Shown here piece after piece: positions 44,846-52,042 of a stretch of DNA of 64,000 nucleotides. A model generated the notes under the pieces. It ran no database searches. It was not told the DNA's origin and saw only the letters and a list, made by a program, of their open reading frames with translations. The DNA lies in the sequence record MW822011. One strand, 5' to 3'. How positions within the stretch are numbered: the stretch's first letter is position 1; each line of letters opens with the position of its first letter. Source of the DNA: Shigella phage TB004. The position numbers and the translations under genes are program-made.

Positions 44846-45542
<697 letters not shown>

Positions 45543-45553
45543 TTTCACAAAGT

Positions 45554-45585
45554 TATTTACACGGGGTTTTAGTTGTGATACTATT
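45554..45585 (+). promoter_or_regulatory. T4-type early promoter (IP gene 1)
   Basis: ATTTAC -35-like and TGATACTAT extended -10. Confidence 0.5.
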
Positions 45586-45620
45586 ACCCTATCAAAACAA
45601 ATGAGTGATTGGAGAATAAA

Positions 45621-45893
45621 ATGAAAACATTTAAAGAATTTATCAATGAAGCTACTTTTAACGAAAAAGTAAAAATTAGTAAAGCTGTCAAGACTTTGAT
45701 TGCTGACATCAATTACCTATATGATATTGATTTAACTGACTATGTAACAGTTGGTAACAAACGTAACTTTTTCGTGTTTGACATCTCTGAACTTGACCAG
45801 AATCAAATTAACAACATTGAGCGTTTTGCTAATGATAAGGGTCTTCGTCATGAGTCAGCGGGTTATAAAAAATACGCAATTTATTTAAAATGA
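45621..45893 (+). CDS. internal protein with capsid targeting sequence (IPI locus)
   Basis: Starts MKTFKEFINE|A (CTS with I-x-E protease site); own early promoter; adjacent to 57B. Confidence 0.65.
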   Translation: MKTFKEFINEATFNEKVKISKAVKTLIADINYLYDIDLTDYVTVGNKRNFFVFDISELDQNQINNIERFANDKGLRHESAGYKKYAIYLK

Positions 45894-45923
45894 GTTTACT
45901 TTTAAATAGGGTTGTGGTACTAT
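45894..45923 (+). promoter_or_regulatory. T4-type early promoter (IP gene 2)
   Basis: GTTTAC ... TGGTACTAT. Confidence 0.5.
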
Positions 45924-45953
45924 TATCTCATCAAAATTAATTAGGAAAATAAA

Positions 45954-46262
45954 ATGAAAACATTTAAAGAATTTATCAATGAAGCGGCTGCGCCAAAGAC
46001 ATTCGTTATTAATACTCAGGCGAGTCTTGATGATGAATACGCGGAGGCAATTCTGAAGTCACTTGCTAAGAACGGTGTTGAAGTAATTGCTTCGGACTTT
46101 AAGAAAGGGGCTTCCGAGATGTTTATTTCTATAACTAAAGGATCTAAAGCTAAGATTAAATCATCATTCGGAGTTGCTCGTACCGATCAAATCGACAATC
46201 ATGACTTTAAACAAACTGGTGCTAAACGGCAGAATACAATTGCATCACGCGGAATAAAATAG
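45954..46262 (+). CDS. second CTS-bearing internal-protein-like ORF
   Basis: 102 aa; first 37 nt from ATG identical to previous gene (MKTFKEFINEA); own early promoter. Confidence 0.6.
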   Translation: MKTFKEFINEAAAPKTFVINTQASLDDEYAEAILKSLAKNGVEVIASDFKKGASEMFISITKGSKAKIKSSFGVARTDQIDNHDFKQTGAKRQNTIASRGIK

Positions 46263-46274
46263 TTTATAAAAACA

Positions 46275-46304
46275 GTTTACTTTTAGATAGGGTAGTGATA
46301 CTAT
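46275..46304 (+). promoter_or_regulatory. T4-type early promoter
   Basis: GTTTAC ... TGATACTAT. Confidence 0.5.
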
Positions 46305-46332
46305 TACCCTATCAACTACAGAGGAGAATAAA

Positions 46333-46518
46333 ATGAAACGTTGTGAATTAATTCGAAATGTTGCTATTGCAATTTCTGCTTCCGCTTTTAGTTTTTCAAT
46401 GTTTGTTGGATTTATATGCGGATTATTAACTACAGCAGAAAATGTGTTTTCACTTGTAGTAGCATTTTTAATTGGTTTAATTGCTATCGTTATGGATAAA
46501 ATTTCTAAAGGTGAATAG
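46333..46518 (+). CDS. small membrane protein
   Basis: 61 aa, two hydrophobic helices; early promoter cassette upstream. Confidence 0.5.
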   Translation: MKRCELIRNVAIAISASAFSFSMFVGFICGLLTTAENVFSLVVAFLIGLIAIVMDKISKGE

Positions 46519-46519
46519 A

Positions 46520-46900
46520 ATGTATAAAGTGTATGCGGATTATCAGGCTAATCCATCTGAAAAGCCAGGTTGTCAAATTGGATGGGCTCATGATACTTTG
46601 CTTGAAGCAGTAGATGCTGCTCAAAAATTGGGATATAAATATGTAGAGATTGTTCAACCGTCAGGAAAAGTTATTACTCTTGAAGAGTTCAATAACATTA
46701 AACCAAACTTTTTACTTTTTGCAGGTGATAATTATTATCCTCGTGGTGGATATGCTGATTTAATCGCGAAAGCCGCCACTGAAGATGAACTCCGTGATAT
46801 TATCAAAGAAAATGAAAACAAACTGATGTATGGTTCTAATCGCTTTGATTGGTGGCAAATTGTAAATGCCCATACTCATACTATTGTTGATGAAGGCTGA
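46520..46900 (+). CDS. hypothetical protein
   Basis: 126 aa from MYKVYADYQ; ATG overlaps preceding stop. Confidence 0.5.
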   Translation: MYKVYADYQANPSEKPGCQIGWAHDTLLEAVDAAQKLGYKYVEIVQPSGKVITLEEFNNIKPNFLLFAGDNYYPRGGYADLIAKAATEDELRDIIKENENKLMYGSNRFDWWQIVNAHTHTIVDEG

Positions 46901-46902
46901 TA

Positions 46903-47190
46903 ATGATTCTTTATGCGAAAGTATCGTCCGTTGAAAATGGATATAAATATGATCAAGATGCGGCTAAAGCCTTGATTGATGATTATGGCATTTTAACATG
47001 TTTTGAAGTTGAAAAGGTTTACATTGACCGTTCATCTTCTCAAGTTAAATTAGTAAAGGAAGACCGTAAATTTAATACAGTAAATTTTGATTTCTTTATT
47101 GAAACAGAAAAAGGTCCTCTTGAATATGATATTTTCAAGAATCCTTTGGGTCTTGAATGCATCGTAAATATGTATTATCATAAATGGTAA
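46903..47190 (+). CDS. hypothetical protein
   Basis: 95 aa ORF. Confidence 0.5.
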   Translation: MILYAKVSSVENGYKYDQDAAKALIDDYGILTCFEVEKVYIDRSSSQVKLVKEDRKFNTVNFDFFIETEKGPLEYDIFKNPLGLECIVNMYYHKW

Positions 47191-47263
47191 ATATGCTTTA
47201 AGAAATATTTGTTATTATTAACTCATATCGCACTGATTAATACCCTCTATCATCAAGGGTTCT

Positions 47264-47286
47264 TGCTTGAGAGCCTTTGTTAATAA
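47264..47286 (+). promoter_or_regulatory. possible MotA-type middle promoter just upstream of tRNA-Gln
   Basis: TTGCTTGA box followed about 12 nt later by TAATAAT. Confidence 0.3.
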
Positions 47287-47287
47287 T

Positions 47288-47360
47288 TGGGAATTAGCCA
47301 AGTTGGTAAGGCACTGGATTTTGATTCCAGGATGCAAAGGTTCGAGTCCTTTATTCCCAG
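47288..47360 (+). tRNA. tRNA-Gln (anticodon UUG)
   Basis: Cloverleaf by hand: acceptor TGGGAAT/ATTCCCA, anticodon loop TTTTGAT, T-arm AAAGG-TTCGAGT-CCTTT. Confidence 0.85.
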
Positions 47361-47361
47361 C

Positions 47362-47448
47362 GCGAGAATGGTCAAATTGGTAAAGGCACAGCACTTAAAA
47401 TGCTGCGGAATGATTTCCTTGTGGGTTCGAGTCCCACTTCTCGCACCA
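47362..47448 (+). tRNA. tRNA-Leu (anticodon UAA), long variable arm
   Basis: Acceptor GCGAGAA/TTCTCGC, loop CTTAAAA, T-arm GTGGG-TTCGAGT-CCCAC, encoded CCA. Confidence 0.85.
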
Positions 47449-47453
47449 AATTT

Positions 47454-47527
<74 letters not shown>

Positions 47528-47537
47528 ATTTAATTTA

Positions 47538-47611
47538 CTCCGTGTAGCTCAGTTTGGTAGAGCGTCTGCTTTGGGAGCAGAATGTCGCAGGTTCAAATCC
47601 TGCCGCGGAGA
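47538..47611 (+). tRNA. tRNA-Pro (anticodon UGG), no encoded CCA
   Basis: Acceptor CTCCGTG/CGCGGAG, loop TTTGGGA, T-arm GCAGG-TTCAAAT-CCTGC. Confidence 0.8.
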
Positions 47612-47613
47612 CT

Positions 47614-47703
47614 GGAGGCGTGGCAGAGTGGTTTAATGCACCGGTCTTGAAAACCGGCAGTCGCTCCGGCGACTCATAGGTTCAAATCCTATCGCCTCCG
47701 CCA
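47614..47703 (+). tRNA. tRNA-Ser (anticodon UGA), class II
   Basis: Acceptor GGAGGCG/CGCCTCC, loop CTTGAAA, long variable arm, CCA. Confidence 0.85.
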
Positions 47704-47708
47704 GTTTT

Positions 47709-47784
47709 GCTGATTTAGCTCAGTAGGTAGAGCAACTCACTTGTAATGAGAAGGTCGGCGGTTCGATTCCGTCAATCAGCACCA
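47709..47784 (+). tRNA. tRNA-Thr (anticodon UGU)
   Basis: Acceptor GCTGATT/AATCAGC, loop CTTGTAA, CCA. Confidence 0.8.
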
Positions 47785-47785
47785 A

Positions 47786-47860
47786 GGCCCTGTAGCTGGA
47801 AGGTTCAAGCAAGCGACTCATAATCGCCAGATGGTGGTTCAATTCCACCCAGGGCCACCA
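47786..47860 (+). tRNA. tRNA-Ile (anticodon CAU, lysidine type) or Met
   Basis: Acceptor GGCCCTG/CAGGGCC, loop CTCATAA, CCA; T4 carries Ile with CAU at this position. Confidence 0.8.
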
Positions 47861-47873
47861 AATTAAGAATTAA

Positions 47874-47960
47874 GGGGAGTTATCCCGTAGAGGTAGCGGT
47901 GTGGACTGTAAATCCATTGTCATTGCGACTCGGGTGGTTCGACTCCATCACTCCCCACCA
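47874..47960 (+). tRNA. tRNA-Tyr-like (anticodon GUA), class II, or tRNA-like stable RNA
   Basis: Acceptor GGGGAGT/ACTCCCC + A + CCA; anticodon loop CTGTAAA; T-arm GGTGG-TTCGACT-CCATC; D-arm imperfect. Confidence 0.55.
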
Positions 47961-47964
47961 ATTT

Positions 47965-48039
47965 GGATGTGTAGCTCAGTGGTAGAGCAGTTGACTGTTA
48001 ATCAATTGGTCCATGGTTCGAATCCATGCATGTCCGCCA
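47965..48039 (+). tRNA. tRNA-Asn (anticodon GUU)
   Basis: Canonical cloverleaf: acceptor GGATGTG/CATGTCC, D-stem GCTC/GAGC, loop CTGTTAA, T-arm CATGG-TTCGAAT-CCATG, CCA. Confidence 0.75.
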
Positions 48040-48164
48040 AATTTGTGACAACTGTCACATTAATATCTACTTGACGCGATTATAGGGTTGAACTGATCAC
48101 TCTTCTCTTAATTTCGTGTGAAGACATCTTGATTGTTGGAGTAGGTATTAATGTGAACTAATTA

Positions 48165-48241
48165 CGGGGTGTAACTCAATTGTATAGAGTAGCGGTCCTC
48201 TAAACCGCAGGTTAAAGGTTAGAATCCTTTCACCCTGGCCA
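48165..48241 (+). tRNA. tRNA-Arg (anticodon UCU)
   Basis: Acceptor CGGGGTG/CACCCTG, D-stem ACTC/GAGT, anticodon stem GCGGT/ACCGC with loop CCTCTAA, T-arm AAAGG-TTAGAAT-CCTTT, CCA. Confidence 0.7.
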
Positions 48242-48262
48242 AATTATTGAGAGAATAATATT

Positions 48263-48817
48263 ATGAGAAGTGATGTAGACTGGGACCAAATTAATTTGGC
48301 TATAAAAGCTGGATTAATATACCGTGGTAATTTTGAAATAACACAAGAACTAATTGAAAATGTTGCTTTTCTTAAAATAACAGACAAGAAAAAATTCTTT
48401 TCTATGACTAAAGCCAAACGCTTGTCAATATGGAAAGTATTTTGTAGGACTGCCGCCCTAAATCTTTTGAAATTTAAAGATGAATTTGATATAGAAAAAA
48501 GCTATCGGCAAGCTTTCGTATACATAATGGTAGATACTACAAATCCTAATTATTATAAAATAGGAAGAAGTATAGAACCCGATGTTAGAGTTATAACAGC
48601 AAATACATTTTCACCGTTTAAAAGTTTTAAAATAGTATCATTTAGATATTCCCAGGATGCAGTAGAACTTGAAAAATATATGCACAGCATTTATAATCAG
48701 GACCATATAAATGGCGAATGGTTTTTCTTTCATGACATAAGTTCCATAGTTAAAAAATTAGATACTAAATCTACACAATTTGAAATACCAAATGAGAAGC
48801 CGGGTCGCTACCGGTAA
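48263..48817 (+). CDS. hypothetical protein with C-terminal T5orf172 (GIY-YIG-related) domain
   Basis: 184 aa; C-terminal FVYIMVDTTNPNYYKIGRS...VELEKYMHSIYNQDHINGEWFFF fits T5orf172/MUG113 pattern; begins 22 nt after tRNA-Arg. Confidence 0.6.
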   Translation: MRSDVDWDQINLAIKAGLIYRGNFEITQELIENVAFLKITDKKKFFSMTKAKRLSIWKVFCRTAALNLLKFKDEFDIEKSYRQAFVYIMVDTTNPNYYKIGRSIEPDVRVITANTFSPFKSFKIVSFRYSQDAVELEKYMHSIYNQDHINGEWFFFHDISSIVKKLDTKSTQFEIPNEKPGRYR

Positions 48818-49126
48818 GTCGTCGGACTGATGTTCCCTGCGTAAGGACTGGTCTTAATAAATCTTTACGATTTGTTAATATCCCCTTACATCACAGCAGA
48901 AACGGCGCACCGAATTATCGATTCGAGGAAATATCTTTGCCGTAAGCCGAGTAGCGTTTTTGACGGAACGTTCGGATATGGTCGAGATATGGCCTTTTAA
49001 AAATATTGAGTAGCGTCAACTACTTAATAACCGGGTTCGAATCCCGGCGTTTCGTACAAACACTTGCCTTAGCAGGTGGAACCCCGACAAGGTATATAGC
49101 CCCTTCCGAAAGGTTGGGGCTTTTTT
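48818..49126 (+). ncRNA. candidate structured non-coding RNA region (possibly stable RNA(s) co-transcribed with the tRNA array) ending in an intrinsic terminator
   Basis: About 310 bp with no ORF of 60 aa or more on either strand in an otherwise compact genome; hairpins incl. CCGGG-TTCGAAT-CCCGG (49031-49047, tRNA T-arm-like) and AGCCCC...GGGGCT+T6 (49098-49126). Confidence 0.3.
49098..49126 (+). terminator. intrinsic terminator closing the tRNA-region transcript
   Basis: AGCCCC-(12 nt loop)-GGGGCT then T6. Confidence 0.6.
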
Positions 49127-49127
49127 G

Positions 49128-49135
49128 TATAAATA
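49128..49135 (+). promoter_or_regulatory. late promoter upstream of the 49171 ORF
   Basis: TATAAATA immediately after terminator hairpin. Confidence 0.55.
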
Positions 49136-49170
49136 TAGTAAACAATAAACCTACTTTCTAAGGACCATCA

Positions 49171-49551
49171 ATGTATACTTTTAATGAATTTTTAGCCGAA
49201 ACGGAAGTAATCACCGAAGCCGGCGTACGTATGACAAAAGAGAAATGGCAAGCTGCTTACGATGCTATTTCTGGTACAAAAACTAGTACAGAGTTTTTCA
49301 AAAACGTTCAAGCCATGTACGGTATCGACACTTCTAGCCAAAAAGAATATTACAGAGCTTCTAAAGCATTCAAAGATATTGTTAGTGGTGGTGTTTCTGC
49401 TAAATCGGGTTCGCCTAAAGTAAAACCTGCTCCTACCATTCCTAAACCTGCGACCCCTAAAGCAAAACCTGAGCCTAAGCCGGAAGTAAAAGCACCTCCT
49501 AAAGCTCCTGCTCTTAAGTTTGATACTTCTAGCCTGGAAAAAAAAATATAA
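49171..49551 (+). CDS. hypothetical Lys/Pro/Ala-rich protein, 5' part of a probable split gene
   Basis: 126 aa ORF behind TATAAATA late promoter; ends inside an A9 run. Confidence 0.5.
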   Translation: MYTFNEFLAETEVITEAGVRMTKEKWQAAYDAISGTKTSTEFFKNVQAMYGIDTSSQKEYYRASKAFKDIVSGGVSAKSGSPKVKPAPTIPKPATPKAKPEPKPEVKAPPKAPALKFDTSSLEKKI

Positions 49552-49792
49552 ACAACTATCTTCGCTTGTTCGTGATATTGAATCCGATACATCTTCACTC
49601 GTTCGTGAATTCAATAGTCTTCGCAATGGCCAACATATCAACAACCTTGATACCCCAGACCTTTATCGTCTTTATTTGACTATCGAAGGTTTGAAGTATA
49701 CTCAACCACTTCACGATGCGATTAAAGAAAAACTTCGTCAGGCAGGTCGTTTGGCTGCTGACGCTGCTCAGTATGCAAAAACCCGTAAATAA
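49520..49792 (+). CDS. 3' part of probable split gene (+1 frame relative to 49171 ORF)
   Basis: Overlaps previous ORF by about 30 nt across the A9 run; no good independent start/RBS. Confidence 0.4.
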   Translation: MILLAWKKKYKQLSSLVRDIESDTSSLVREFNSLRNGQHINNLDTPDLYRLYLTIEGLKYTQPLHDAIKEKLRQAGRLAADAAQYAKTRK

Positions 49793-49870
49793 TTAAGTTA
49801 CAATCACTTAAGCCCCTTCCTATGGTTGGGGCTTTCGGGCATCTAGGGCAGATAAATTTTTCACAAAGTT

Positions 49871-49899
49871 GTTTACTTCTCCTTGAGGTATGATACTAT
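49871..49899 (+). promoter_or_regulatory. T4-type early promoter
   Basis: GTTTAC ... TGATACTAT. Confidence 0.5.
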
Positions 49900-49929
49900 A
49901 GACCTATCAAAACAAATGAGGAAAACATT

Positions 49930-50433
49930 ATGAGTCTTTATACTGAACTGAATAAAAAATCTGAAGAATCGCGTGACGTTGTTTTTAAAAATGTACAAAA
50001 GCGTATTTTGGAAAAGATGTATGATGCTGCATCTAAAGGTGAAAAATCATGCCGCTTTCCGATGAGATGTTCTACAGATTTATGCTCAAATACTATTGAA
50101 TGGTTAGAAAGCGAAGGTCTTACTGTAGAGAAAAACCCGGCGACTTCTATTGACGGTGAATCATATATTAGTATTTCTTGGGATAAACCACAGGTTAATG
50201 AGAAAGACGGTGATTGGGTTGTGGATGTTAAGACTTCTGATGGTGGACGTTCTGTTGAAGTTTCAGCCGTAGTTAAAGGTACACATGGGCAAAATAGCTG
50301 GGGATGTGGTGGTGAAGAAAAAGAAATTGTTCTTAGTGTGATTGCAAGGTCCACTAGCAATAAAATTGCCCAGAGCATCATCTATGCTGCGTGCATTGAA
50401 GCTGGAAAAATTTGCAAAATTAAAAATAAATGA
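49930..50433 (+). CDS. hypothetical protein
   Basis: 167 aa; early promoter cassette upstream. Confidence 0.55.
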   Translation: MSLYTELNKKSEESRDVVFKNVQKRILEKMYDAASKGEKSCRFPMRCSTDLCSNTIEWLESEGLTVEKNPATSIDGESYISISWDKPQVNEKDGDWVVDVKTSDGGRSVEVSAVVKGTHGQNSWGCGGEEKEIVLSVIARSTSNKIAQSIIYAACIEAGKICKIKNK

Positions 50434-50494
50434 TGTACAAACACCAAGGACGGTGTTACTATAGACCTATCAAATCAAATGAGAGGAAAATAAA

Positions 50495-50722
50495 ATGGCT
50501 AAAGTTAGTATTGATGTCGTTGATTATGAATACACAGAAGAAGTTATTCGCAACCGCCACCCTGAAGTTCGTATCGATTCAGTCCAAGATTCCAAGTTCT
50601 GGACAACTGAGCTTAATCTGAGTGGTTCTTATGAAGCCGTTAAGAAGTTCATGGTTGAAGAATACTGCGAAGGCATGCACCCGGAAGACGCCGAGTTTTA
50701 TGTCAATTTGATTAAAAAATAA
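50495..50722 (+). CDS. hypothetical protein
   Basis: 75 aa ORF with RBS GAGAGGAAAA. Confidence 0.5.
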   Translation: MAKVSIDVVDYEYTEEVIRNRHPEVRIDSVQDSKFWTTELNLSGSYEAVKKFMVEEYCEGMHPEDAEFYVNLIKK

Positions 50723-50792
50723 TTTACAAACTCTTGAGAGCAGAGTATAATGCTCTCATTGGATAATAAACCACCAATTGAAAGGTAATAAT

Positions 50793-51386
50793 ATGAACAC
50801 ACTGAAGAAACTTGTTGAATTCATCCGCACTAAACTGGGTACTGCTATGGCTAAAAATCTGACTGTCGAAGAACAGTATAACGCAGCTGCAGATAAGTTG
50901 ATTACCCAGATCAAAGAACTAAAAATGGCTTCTGTTAAATCTATTAATGAAGAAAAACGTATTCGCGAACTTGTTATTGAAAAGAATAAGCAAGCCGCTT
51001 CTAAGGAACGTGAAATTCGTAAGCTCCTGGCTGAAGGACAAGATGTTACCATGCATGCCAAGCTTGGTCTTCTGTATCGTCGAACTGCCGAACAACTTAA
51101 TACAAAAGCTGACGGGTATGCCGCTATGCGAATTGAAATTGCTCGTAAGGTTGTTGAACTTGACGATGCTCGTCAGAATCTGGCAATCAAACTCGAATAC
51201 ATTCGTGAAACTCGAGCAGCTAATGCCCTTGGTATCTCTACGGCTGATGATGTAATTGAAATCGCTGCACTGACTAAGGTTGATATCGAAGACACTCTGA
51301 CTCGTGTTGAAACGTTCAATGGTAATATTTCTGGGGTTGAAACTACCTCTGCCGATGTTCAGGAATATATTAATTCTCTGAAATAA
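50793..51386 (+). CDS. coiled-coil protein (PspA/IM30-like by composition; uncertain)
   Basis: 198 aa from ATG at 50793; heptad-rich, followed by GC hairpin. Confidence 0.55.
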
Positions 51387-51391
51387 TGATA

Positions 51392-51407
51392 AGGGGCTTC
51401 GGCCCTT
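51392..51407 (+). terminator. stem-loop after coiled-coil gene
   Basis: GGGGC-TTCG-GCCCT (UUCG tetraloop). Confidence 0.4.
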
Positions 51408-51427
51408 ATTACTTGGAGTAAATAGGA

Positions 51428-52042
51428 ATGAAAATGAAAATGCAAAGTGATTTCAATTCAATGTTTGAAGAGTTCCAAAGACAGGTTGATGTTCCAGACC
51501 AATTACTAAATGCTCTTAAACGTATGGCAGAAGGACGTAATTATTATTGGGGTTCTTCATATGAAACTGATGAAAGTCTTTCTGGAAGATTTTCCAGAGG
51601 TAAAAAGTCTTTAATACGTCCTGGAATACTTATTAACAATATTGAATCAATTCATTTATTGACATGTGATTTTGATGTTGAATTTACTGATTTCATTTCT
51701 CCTGAATGGACAGTTTGTTATTTAAACGACGATTTTGATTATCTCGGTGTTTATAGTTTAAGTGACGCATGGTTTAAACGTAACTTACAAAAGTCAAATT
51801 TATTCTATATTGATACTACAGTAAAATTTCAGGGAAAGAAATATTTCTTTACTCTTATAGTTGATTCTGAAACGAAGCATGAAAATAAACGTATTCTTAG
51901 TAAAAGAAATATCTTGAATATTGTTGATGATCTTTTTGATAAATTAGTGGAAAATCCTAATTTTGAAAGTGATTTATTACTAGAAAAATTTGTTAAGGAA
52001 TGTAGAGAATATGTCAAAGCCATCACTATACCTTCCAAGTAA
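51428..52042 (+). CDS. hypothetical protein, member 1 of tandem family (soluble)
   Basis: 204 aa; C-terminal EKFVKECREY motif shared with next three genes. Confidence 0.55.
   Translation: MKMKMQSDFNSMFEEFQRQVDVPDQLLNALKRMAEGRNYYWGSSYETDESLSGRFSRGKKSLIRPGILINNIESIHLLTCDFDVEFTDFISPEWTVCYLNDDFDYLGVYSLSDAWFKRNLQKSNLFYIDTTVKFQGKKYFFTLIVDSETKHENKRILSKRNILNIVDDLFDKLVENPNFESDLLLEKFVKECREYVKAITIPSK

Follow-up and report, generated by a model that had tools for sequence, protein, structure and literature searches.

An endonuclease-like gene of the T5orf172/MUG113 branch inserted between tRNA-Arg and the stable RNA genes rnaD and rnaC in Shigella phage TB004

In Shigella phage TB004 (record MW822011), of which a stretch of 64,000 nt was analysed (the window), an open reading frame (ORF) with a nuclease-like domain lies between a tRNA gene and several hundred nucleotides of highly structured sequence. 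Are the protein and the RNA parts of one machinery, or do they merely share an address? A preliminary description, made from the sequence alone, had singled out this combination as the most system-like arrangement in the window. Our best explanation is that the ORF and the RNA genes downstream are two independent neighbours, brought side by side by accident and not a working pair. Positions 48792-49056 hold the rnaD and rnaC genes of T-even phages, and we consider it probable that the ORF is a free-standing, homing-endonuclease-like gene of the T5orf172/MUG113 branch. The apparent nuclease-plus-RNA system dissolves into the classic species 1 and species 2 RNAs of T4 and an add-on. The features of the locus are as follows.

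48164-48791, plus strand: cassette of 628 bp, composed of tRNA-Arg, a 21-nt spacer and the ORF up to ...GAAATACCAA
48165-48241, plus strand: tRNA-Arg(UCU), an atypical allele that forms the left part of the mobile cassette (ARAGORN; Rfam tRNA model, 59.3 bits)
48263-48817, plus strand: ORF of 184 aa with an ATG start, its last 26 nt, with the TAA stop, inside rnaD
Amino acids 1 to about 80 of the ORF: N-terminal helical domain
Amino acids about 84-156 of the ORF: C-terminal T5orf172/MUG113 (GIY-YIG-like) domain
48669-48697, plus strand: candidate sigma-70-like promoter inside the ORF (TTGAAA, 17-nt spacer, TATAAT; 11 of 12 positions in a consensus scan)
48792-48911, plus strand: homolog of rnaD, the species 2 stable RNA of T4 (aligned to T4 NC_000866, 71053-71171)
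48918-49056, plus strand: homolog of rnaC, the species 1 stable RNA of T4 (aligned to the 139-nt T4 rnaC)
49099-49126, plus strand: terminator-like hairpin followed by T6, ending the tRNA/stable-RNA transcription unit (GCCCCTTCCGAAAGGTTGGGGCTTTTTT; minimum-free-energy fold)

The structured RNA is rnaD and rnaC

The two RNA segments match T4 rnaD (119 nt) and rnaC (139 nt) over their full lengths, with about 90% identity for rnaD and a single differing position for rnaC. The T4 record annotates both genes directly 3' of tRNA-Arg, and their order is the same in TB004, after tRNA-Arg and before the terminator, with a tRNA-like T-arm common to both rnaC genes. In T4, rnaD begins 1 nt past the CCA of tRNA-Arg, whereas in TB004 a 549-bp segment bearing the ORF lies between them and, unlike the T4 arrangement, the ORF ends inside rnaD; the alignment to T4 rnaD opens at ATACCA-A-ATGAGAA. 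Equivalence to the T4 species 1 and 2 RNAs, one of the three readings offered in the preliminary description, is thus what the alignments bear out. The stretch that it had called non-coding (48818-49126) is indeed strongly structured, but it consists of two RNA genes that begin at 48792 and overlap the end of the ORF.

Folding of 48792-49128 yields -123.8 kcal/mol (z = -6.1), a value that none of 100 shuffles equalled. The rnaC fold (-50.2 kcal/mol, z = -4.6) has a closing stem with the T-arm beside its 3' strand; the T-arm-like hairpin CCGGG-TTCGAAT-CCCGG was found at 49031-49047 as had been described, inside rnaC, where a perfect GGTTCGAATCC motif occupies 49034-49044. In the consensus fold of rnaD, comparison of 10 phages reveals compensatory changes at seven pairs. 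An Rfam search (47900-49300, E <= 1) returned tRNAs only, rnaC and rnaD being without an Rfam family. In T4-infected cells both RNAs accumulate as stable, processed small RNAs (PMC3014915; T4 record), and their biological roles are reported as unknown (PMC3014915; PMC12685909).

At least 80% of the segment 48800-49170 is held by 678 of 802 records of T-even-type phages. The preliminary description had named its own counter-case, an ordinary 3' UTR present unchanged in all T-even genomes beside an unrelated gene. Half of this is what we see: the region is indeed shared among T-even phages and stands beside an unrelated gene, yet it contains two stable RNAs annotated in T4. The best explanation is that rnaD and rnaC are T-even genes co-transcribed with the tRNAs and ancestral at this locus.

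The transcription unit was also said to close with a strong intrinsic terminator. A terminal hairpin followed by U6 is present in the minimum-free-energy fold at 49099-49126, and the record of the related phage SA21RB gives a rho-independent terminator for its rnaC region, but a simple, strict terminator scan did not flag the hairpin because its stem carries a 2x2 internal mismatch. As to the start of transcription, the promoter-like site at 48669-48697 could feed rnaD and rnaC; promoter-like sites are no commoner in the region than in shuffles, so that this one is only a lead.

A protein of the T5orf172/MUG113 family

The ORF is present as first described (48263-48817, plus strand, ATG, 184 aa), except that the gap to tRNA-Arg(TCT), which ends at 48241, is 21 nt and not 22. 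The assignment of its C-terminal half to T5orf172/MUG113 holds: in Pfam, MUG113 (PF13455) matches amino acids 98-155 (E = 4.5e-9; 37.2 bits for a cut-off of 22.3) and T5orf172 (PF10544) matches amino acids 85-155 (E = 4e-6; 27.7 bits for a cut-off of 20). The generic GIY-YIG model (PF01541), which had been expected as another possible hit, stayed under its cut-off (E = 0.13). Also, the phrog_5032 profile matches the protein with an E-value of 1.6e-59. T5orf172 has been described as a GIY-YIG subfamily, with a nuclease activity demonstrated to depend on Glu, and as one of the classes into which homing endonuclease genes fall (PMC10448857).

The conserved core includes the Tyr of 'GIY', the Tyr/Lys-Ile-Gly of 'YIG', an Arg and a putative catalytic Glu. 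Across 25 homologs, with identities as low as 22%, the residues Y87, K99, G101, R109 and E152 do not vary and, judging from the order of the motifs, they may correspond to the catalytic positions of I-TevI. The predicted fold is of the GIY-YIG alpha/beta type, and the full-length structural matches are T5orf172 proteins of T5-like phages (TM about 0.7). Against the PDB, Foldseek gave nothing below E = 0.1, a profile search of the sequences gave noise only, and no solved structure of a T5orf172 domain was detectable by sequence. In the N-terminal domain no DNA-binding fold could be recognised, which, like the sub-threshold score of the generic GIY-YIG model, counts against a homing endonuclease.

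Two other identities were considered and rejected. PADLOC produced only weak, domain-level matches (PDC-S57, PD-Lambda-1), and there is therefore no case for a defence system. Decay of the gene, suggested by a 68-aa fragment from UFV-AREG1 in protein libraries, is contradicted by the current record of that phage, in which the ORF is intact with 184 aa. No second copy of the family was found across the 64-kb window.

A 628-bp cassette exchanged between T-even genera

The ORF does not travel alone. The cassette is 93-95% identical to its counterparts in VR7, VR26 and ESCO10, although the flanking genes of these phages reach only 72-83% identity to those of the window, and its breakpoints, at 48164 and 48791, are sharp. 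Conversely, SA21RB and VIPECOOM01 have flanks that are 95-97% identical and carry tRNA-His and another tRNA-Arg instead of the cassette. The 628 bp have been swapped as a unit, by lateral transfer, between T-even genera. The right junction offers no more than a microhomology of 4-6 nt, (AT)ACCA, to the CCA end of the tRNA that was replaced. We had considered 'ATACCA' (48785-48790) as a remnant of the 3' end of a T4-type tRNA-Arg, and discarded the idea: these bases belong to the cassette, because ECO111 5-P retains ATACCA before another gene and because they encode a conserved Ile-Pro.

The tRNA-Arg(UCU) of the cassette is unusual, with C33 in the anticodon loop CCTCTAA, a T-loop reading TTAGAAT and a D-loop without GG. 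At 95% identity or more, this allele is found in exactly the 15 records that hold the ORF at 90% amino acid identity or more. It is 89% identical in two listed records with a diverged ORF block, AV110 and ECO111 5-P (the ORF copy of the latter has 78% amino acid identity). One tRNA-Arg allele accompanies the ORF in every listed carrier. About 220 further records have a related allele (80-85%), and the listed ones that were checked are not among the ORF matches.

The census was drawn from the GenBank phage collection, as IMG/VR contributed few loci (three for the ORF, six for rnaD). The ORF is found at 60% amino acid identity or more in 18 records, about 2% of the T-even records, scattered over several genera; the carriers examined span Tequatrovirus, Mosigvirus, Gaprivervirus and Dhakavirus. 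Asked whether the block from the ORF to the terminator is present, absent or replaced in T-even phages, the answer is twofold: the RNAs are in T4 as in most records, but the whole block is in only 14 of 771, and the ORF slot is empty in T4. It is empty in SA21RB too, and in moskry and VIPECOOM01 it holds an unrelated phrog_3355 ORF with no nuclease signature. Presence and absence are hence sporadic between close relatives with conserved flanks, SA21RB and VIPECOOM01 being examples of phages without the ORF.

Relatives in tRNA arrays and the origin of the locus

The family recurs in comparable places. T5p067 of the T5-like phages, a T5orf172-domain gene of 172 aa located between tRNA-Cys and tRNA-Asn, BF23 ORF172c and ORF121c of Aeromonas phage 44RR2.8t are full-length homologs of the ORF (27-42% identity) with both domains; the annotation of VR7 already points out the similarity to BF23 ORF172c. 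Of 17 loci of the family, 12 have the end of a tRNA 9-21 nt ahead of the ATG; the stop codon is embedded in the following tRNA gene, at a depth of 10-39 nt, in eight loci, and in rnaD, 26 nt deep, in four. The T5-like genes share both traits with the ORF although their phages belong to another family than TB004; unlike them, the TB004 gene has rnaD as its downstream RNA gene and one specific tRNA-Arg allele as its companion. In Straboviridae and Demerecviridae alike, the gene keeps its place between RNA genes and points the same way as the tRNAs.

Among better characterised systems, the T5orf172 homing endonuclease genes of ICP1, which include Odn and CapR, share the catalytic-domain family with the ORF (Barth et al., 2023, PMC10448857). 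Like the ORF, they stand at the borders of exchanged segments, in 'HEG islands' with cargo, but they have other N-terminal domains and flank essential protein genes, whereas the ORF flanks RNA genes. According to the same work, T5orf172 genes are absent from T4 itself (PMC10448857). What T4 does have is segB, a free-standing nuclease gene in the tRNA array, co-transcribed with the tRNAs as the nuclease-like ORF would be. It moves with adjoining tRNA genes, as the ORF cassette does, and has its stop codon at the border of the RNA gene that follows, an arrangement comparable to that of the ORF (PMC2330249). The differences are equally clear. SegB combines an N-terminal classical GIY-YIG domain with a C-terminal NUMOD DNA-binding part and shows no detectable sequence relationship to the ORF outside the superfamily core, the ORF being of PF10544/PF13455; segB lies between tRNA-Ile and tRNA-Arg in T4, and the ORF between tRNA-Arg and rnaD. 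With PF01541 below threshold and the nuclease-like domain at the C-terminal end (aa 84-156), the ORF is not of the Seg type (SegA-G). The preliminary proposal of an endonuclease-like mobile gene in the niche of segB is the best-supported one for the ORF as far as the mobile gene is concerned, but the slot is not that of segB. The best reading is that the ORF may act as a functional analogue of segB without being a Seg protein, in which case the T-even tRNA regions would house a second, non-Seg class of nuclease genes, T5orf172.

By analogy with SegB and the ICP1 genes, the N-terminal helical domain would bind DNA and the C-terminal domain would cut the ORF-less allele of a co-infecting relative, in or near the junction of tRNA-Arg and rnaD. 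Recombinational repair would then copy the cassette in place of whatever tRNA gene or genes had stood there, starting at the first tRNA nucleotide and stopping at the CCA end. SegB itself targets the T-loop of tRNA genes and cuts at their 3' ends (PMC2330249). The ORF would be transcribed within the tRNA precursor and, as its stop codon lies inside rnaD, processing of the 5' end of rnaD would leave an mRNA without stop codon, keeping nuclease levels low; such a stop-codon loss by tRNA processing, that is, a down-regulation, has been proposed for segB (PMC2330249). The recurring layout, with a tRNA some 20 nt upstream and the stop codon within the next RNA gene, makes a limit set on nuclease expression by tRNA processing directly testable. 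Also, with its exact ends and one constant tRNA allele, the cassette would be a clean natural case for homing with an RNA-gene cargo.

Alternatively, the ORF could be a domesticated T5orf172 protein that has ceased to be a homing nuclease and performs, in association with tRNA arrays, some task from which the phage benefits. It could be a DNA-binding regulator like CapR of PLE, or it could act on the tRNA precursor or on host defences directed at tRNAs, with the atypical tRNA-Arg as beneficial cargo or partner. The ORF is under strong purifying selection (dN/dS of 0.10-0.14) and every copy examined is intact, which marks it as a real gene but is atypical of a declining, purely selfish element and would fit a useful function too. 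The conserved position between RNA genes in two phage families and the constant link to an unusual tRNA-Arg point the same way, and T5orf172 proteins with domesticated roles are known (PMC10448857). However, a gene in so few T-even records, scattered among genera and with sharp cassette ends, bears the signature of a selfish insertion; its putative catalytic residues are invariant, and close relatives do with an empty slot or an unrelated ORF, with no obvious compensation. We regard domestication as unlikely.

The pattern could also be the product of ordinary recombination, homologous or illegitimate, in a hyperplastic region, in which case the ORF would be a passenger that contributes nothing to its own spread. 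The T-even tRNA region is highly mosaic, the slot variously holding three unrelated tRNA-Arg alleles, tRNA-His, or phrog_3355 or phrog_16521 ORFs, and the short microhomology of the right junction would suit such an origin. Yet the nuclease family to which this passenger belongs has repeatedly been assigned to the homing endonuclease genes, and relatives of the ORF occupy the same type of site in unrelated phage families, a placement too consistent to be expected by chance, and we find this origin quite improbable.

That the protein and the downstream RNA form one functional system, as the preliminary description had also proposed, is very improbable in spite of their adjacency on one strand, their probable co-transcription and the 26-nt overlap of the ORF with rnaD, for the two do not co-occur across genomes: the RNAs are in at least 678 records regardless of the ORF, which is in about 18, the ORF stands without rnaD and rnaC in VR26 (where they are mostly deleted and the ORF extends to 219 aa), X20 (where tRNA-Thr follows it), PS2, Serratia T4-like phages and T5-like phages, and ECO111 5-P has another ORF between the two.

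Returning to the homing-endonuclease-like gene that we favour, a more specific and rather doubtful version would make it part of a T5orf172 subfamily specialised for RNA-gene junctions in the tRNA arrays of T4-like and T5-like phages, the T-even cassette uniting a selfish nuclease with a counter-defence tRNA-Arg(UCU). The anticodon nuclease PrrC cuts next to position 33, and C33 could thus make the RNA itself resistant. The U19-A56 swap of this tRNA destroys the GGTTCRANTCC motif used by SegB and could confer resistance on the DNA as well. If this is true, the layout with the stop codon in the next RNA gene would couple nuclease dosage to tRNA processing.

The tRNA-Arg and the ORF as one exchanged cassette

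The phage is T4-like (Tequatrovirus-type), and Escherichia phage 236Ecol005PP is the best overall match near the locus (~95% identity over 77% of 45000-52000). ARAGORN places ten + strand tRNA genes in 47288-48241, the last being tRNA-Arg(TCT), and the features that follow from there are:

48165-48241, +, tRNA-Arg(TCT), called by ARAGORN
48263-48817, +, ORF of 184 aa, 21 nt downstream of tRNA-Arg
48792-48911, +, rnaD homolog, from alignment to T4
48918-49056, +, rnaC homolog, from alignment to T4, with one position differing
49031-49047, +, T-arm-like hairpin, located in the sequence
49099-49126, +, terminal hairpin and T-run, located in the sequence

The preliminary description of the locus is confirmed as accurate: the ORF lies next to tRNA-Arg (at 21 nt, not the 22 nt first given), both hairpins were found, and the stretch said to be structured does fold (z = -6.1 for 48792-49128 versus dinucleotide shuffles). 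Further upstream, the tRNA called as tRNA-Met (anticodon CAT) at 47786-47860 stands where T4 annotates tRNA-Ile, and T4 homology extends ~20 nt into it. A 125-nt spacer (48040-48164) with no tRNA and no Rfam match separates tRNA-Asn from tRNA-Arg; as far as 48155, SA21RB and VIPECOOM01 conserve it at ~95-96%.

Comparison of the window with ten related loci defined the ends of the cassette. VR7 and VR26 (Gaprivervirus) and ESCO10 (Dhakavirus) share 72-83% identity with the window in homologous flanking genes, and 93-95% in the segment from 48164; in VR26 homology ends exactly at 48791. In SA21RB and VIPECOOM01, where the flanks reach 95-97% identity to the window, homology breaks at 48155 and restarts at 48787-48795; the interval contains tRNA-His and another tRNA-Arg, and may include a phrog_3355 ORF. 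The left end of this 628-bp cassette is nucleotide 1 of tRNA-Arg, and its right end, '...GAAATACCAA', matches the ACCA|A terminus of the tRNA-Arg that T4 and SA21RB have in its place, a microhomology of 4-6 nt.

Three mutually dissimilar tRNA-Arg(UCU) alleles (40-60% identity) occupy the cassette position across phages. Fifteen records have the window allele at ≥95% identity, and they are exactly those with the ORF at ≥90%, while an 89% version is found in ECO111 5-P and AV110, both with a diverged ORF block (78% aa identity for the ORF copy of ECO111 5-P). Since allele and ORF share their records and diverge alike, tRNA and ORF have been co-inherited and have co-diverged. A related allele, at 80-85%, is present in ~220 other records; of those listed, the ones checked are absent from the ORF matches.

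This tRNA-Arg is atypical. It has C33 in its anticodon loop (CCTCTAA) versus the near-universal U, its T-loop reads TTAGAAT (A56), and G19 is missing from its D-loop, AATTGTATA; together these suggest that the usual G19-C56 tertiary pair has been swapped for U19-A56. Co-variation of its helices across the window, ECO111 5-P and moskry alleles makes it look like a working tRNA, and it is probably functional. C33 was seen in 7/102 distinct tRNAs of the comparison loci, and six of the seven directly adjoin a T5orf172-family ORF, in a sample biased towards ORF-adjoining loci and with 2-3 independent cases only; because of this bias and these few cases we take the association as a lead, not a result. 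The six are four versions of the cassette tRNA-Arg and two tRNA-Lys(UUU), with anticodon loop CCTTTAA:

L006 2827-2904, C33 tRNA-Lys(UUU) of TrudiRoth
L023 2472-2547, C33 tRNA-Lys(UUU) of 44RR2.8t

Each of these tRNA-Lys genes is entered by a T5orf172-family ORF. The association would fit the current view that changes in phage tRNAs evade tRNA-cleaving defences (PMC12409363).

A T5orf172-family protein and its tRNA arrays

The T5orf172 domain proposed for the 184-aa product was borne out: it scores above the Pfam gathering cut-offs for both MUG113 (E 4.5e-9) and T5orf172 (E 4e-6), with the generic GIY-YIG model sub-threshold (E 0.13). An AlphaFold2 model from a 25-sequence alignment (pLDDT 93.9, pTM 0.88) predicts two domains, the N-terminal one helical (aa 7-74) and the C-terminal one alpha/beta (aa 84-169). 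No solved relative was detectable by sequence and Foldseek of the model against the PDB gave no significant match; among predicted viral structures it matches, at full length, T5orf172 proteins of T5-like phages and ORF121c of 44RR2.8t (TM 0.68-0.75). Seven residues (Y87, K99, G101, R109, P118, E137, E152) do not vary even in homologs of 22% identity, and from motif order we infer that the GIY Tyr, the YIG Gly, the Arg and the catalytic Glu are among them. A search of 1.8 billion proteins gave 7 representatives of the full-length family at E <= 1e-10, so that it is small, and 881 matches to the domain by itself at E <= 1e-3.

The literature places T5orf172 within GIY-YIG as a subfamily and counts it as a class of homing endonuclease genes; ICP1, T5-like phages and others have many such genes, T4 itself none. 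For one member, Odn, Glu-dependent nuclease activity has been shown (PMC10448857). SegB of T4 targets the T-loop motif GGTTCRANTCC, cuts at tRNA 3' ends beside CCAR and spreads segB, along with adjacent tRNA genes, into T2L. tRNA processing that parts the last segB codon from the stop codon has been proposed to reduce expression of segB, and the proposal extended to nuclease genes of the T5 tRNA region (PMC2330249). Of the tRNA genes here, 8/10 have a perfect copy of the SegB core motif, as does rnaC; in the cassette tRNA-Arg the A56 change breaks it. By analogy, SegB would be the functional counterpart of our ORF in the tRNA region. The ORF suits the same stop-codon and tRNA-processing logic, but falls outside the Seg proteins: its two domains come in the opposite order, and PF01541 scores under its cut-off.

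Residence in tRNA arrays is a habit of the family. We tabulated 17 distinct homolog loci from T4-like (E. coli, Serratia, Aeromonas) and T5-like phages, 16 of which are housed in such arrays. A tRNA ends 9-21 nt upstream of the start codon in 12/17; the stop codon lies 10-39 nt within the next tRNA gene in eight, often as the 'TAG' of U8-A9-G10, and 26 nt within rnaD in another four. All T4-like carriers have tRNA-Arg(UCU) directly before the ORF, and the closest T5-like relatives (39-42% identity) have the ORF directly before tRNA-Arg(UCU). In two of these, phiR2-01 and Gostya9, the stop is the TAA of the tRNA-Arg(UCU) anticodon loop (TTCTAAG); the ORF enters the tRNA by 39 nt, and therefore 13 C-terminal residues are encoded by a tRNA gene. 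Both copies are unannotated (L005 2483-3043 and L026 1977-2543, respectively). T5p067 of T5 (172 aa), a full-length homolog, has the same layout as our ORF, between tRNA-Cys and tRNA-Asn and followed by T5 stable RNA3.

The strongest rival explanation is that the ORF encodes a domesticated protein with a useful function. It is suggested by strong purifying selection (dN/dS 0.10-0.14 versus five orthologs), by the intactness of all copies inspected and by the ORF's constant association with an atypical tRNA. Membership in the T5orf172/MUG113 family and the sharp-ended, exchanged cassette uphold the initial reading of an endonuclease-like mobile gene; such a gene would encode an active nuclease with a target site, would home, and may have its expression controlled via RNA processing. 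The VR7 genome annotation already records similarity to BF23 ORF172c; the ORF thus adds an instance, well-delimited and new, of a known kind of gene.

The stable RNAs and their independence of the ORF

The T4 reference record has rnaD ('species 2 RNA', 119 nt) 1 nt after tRNA-Arg, and then rnaC ('species 1 RNA', 139 nt); the window aligns to both from 'ATACCA|A|ATGAGAA...' onward. The stretch 48800-49170 is matched by 802 phage records (at least 80% covered in 678), in several of which rnaC and rnaD are annotated at its counterpart. This alignment and these shared records therefore make the suggested equivalence with the T4 species 1/2 RNAs right. Neither RNA has an Rfam family, and their biological roles are stated to be unknown (PMC3014915; PMC12685909, 2025). 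The fold of rnaC (z = -4.6) has a closing stem, two long arms and the CCGGG-UUCGAAU-CCCGG arm beside the 3' strand, a predicted layout that is tRNA-like. The central hairpin of rnaD is variable. In the rnaD fold, 7 base pairs keep pairing despite two-sided changes in ten phages. An IMG/VR phage (L013, IMGVR_UViG_2974787500_000001) has exchanged the central hairpin for a different hairpin-forming sequence, both rnaD ends and the whole of rnaC remaining conserved. Within the 3' part of the ORF, a near-consensus sigma-70-like promoter match (48669-48697; TTGAAA, 17-nt spacer, TATAAT; 11/12 positions) is oriented towards rnaD/rnaC; such sites are no more numerous in the region than in shuffles.

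The whole block is held by only 14/771 records matching 48040-49170, and by tblastn 15 records encode the ORF protein with ≥90% identity and three more with 60-80%. VR26 has the ORF with most of rnaD/rnaC deleted; in Serratia phage X20 tRNA-Thr follows the ORF, in PS2 no RNA gene lies downstream, and in ECO111 5-P another ORF stands between the T5orf172 ORF and rnaD. On this distribution the ORF is best described as an insertion independent of the RNAs. The idea of a nuclease and structured-RNA 'system' thus fails, with the RNAs in 678 records, the ORF in ~18, and the ORF also found without the RNAs: the pairing is an accident of adjacency, and of the preliminary interpretation only the mobile-gene and T4-RNA readings stand.

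The VR26 copy (L017 2598-3257) has 219 aa and ends just before the terminator hairpin, an extension due to loss of the borrowed stop codon. In other T-even phages the slot between tRNA-Arg and rnaD is occupied by an unrelated ORF of 114-116 aa, phrog_3355, with no Pfam domain:

L002 2652-2996, phrog_3355 ORF of moskry
L010 2787-3137, phrog_3355 ORF of VIPECOOM01
L009 3139-3483, phrog_3355 ORF of ECO111 5-P, placed behind the T5orf172 ORF

The phrog_3355 ORF stops at a TAA formed by rnaD positions 2-4.
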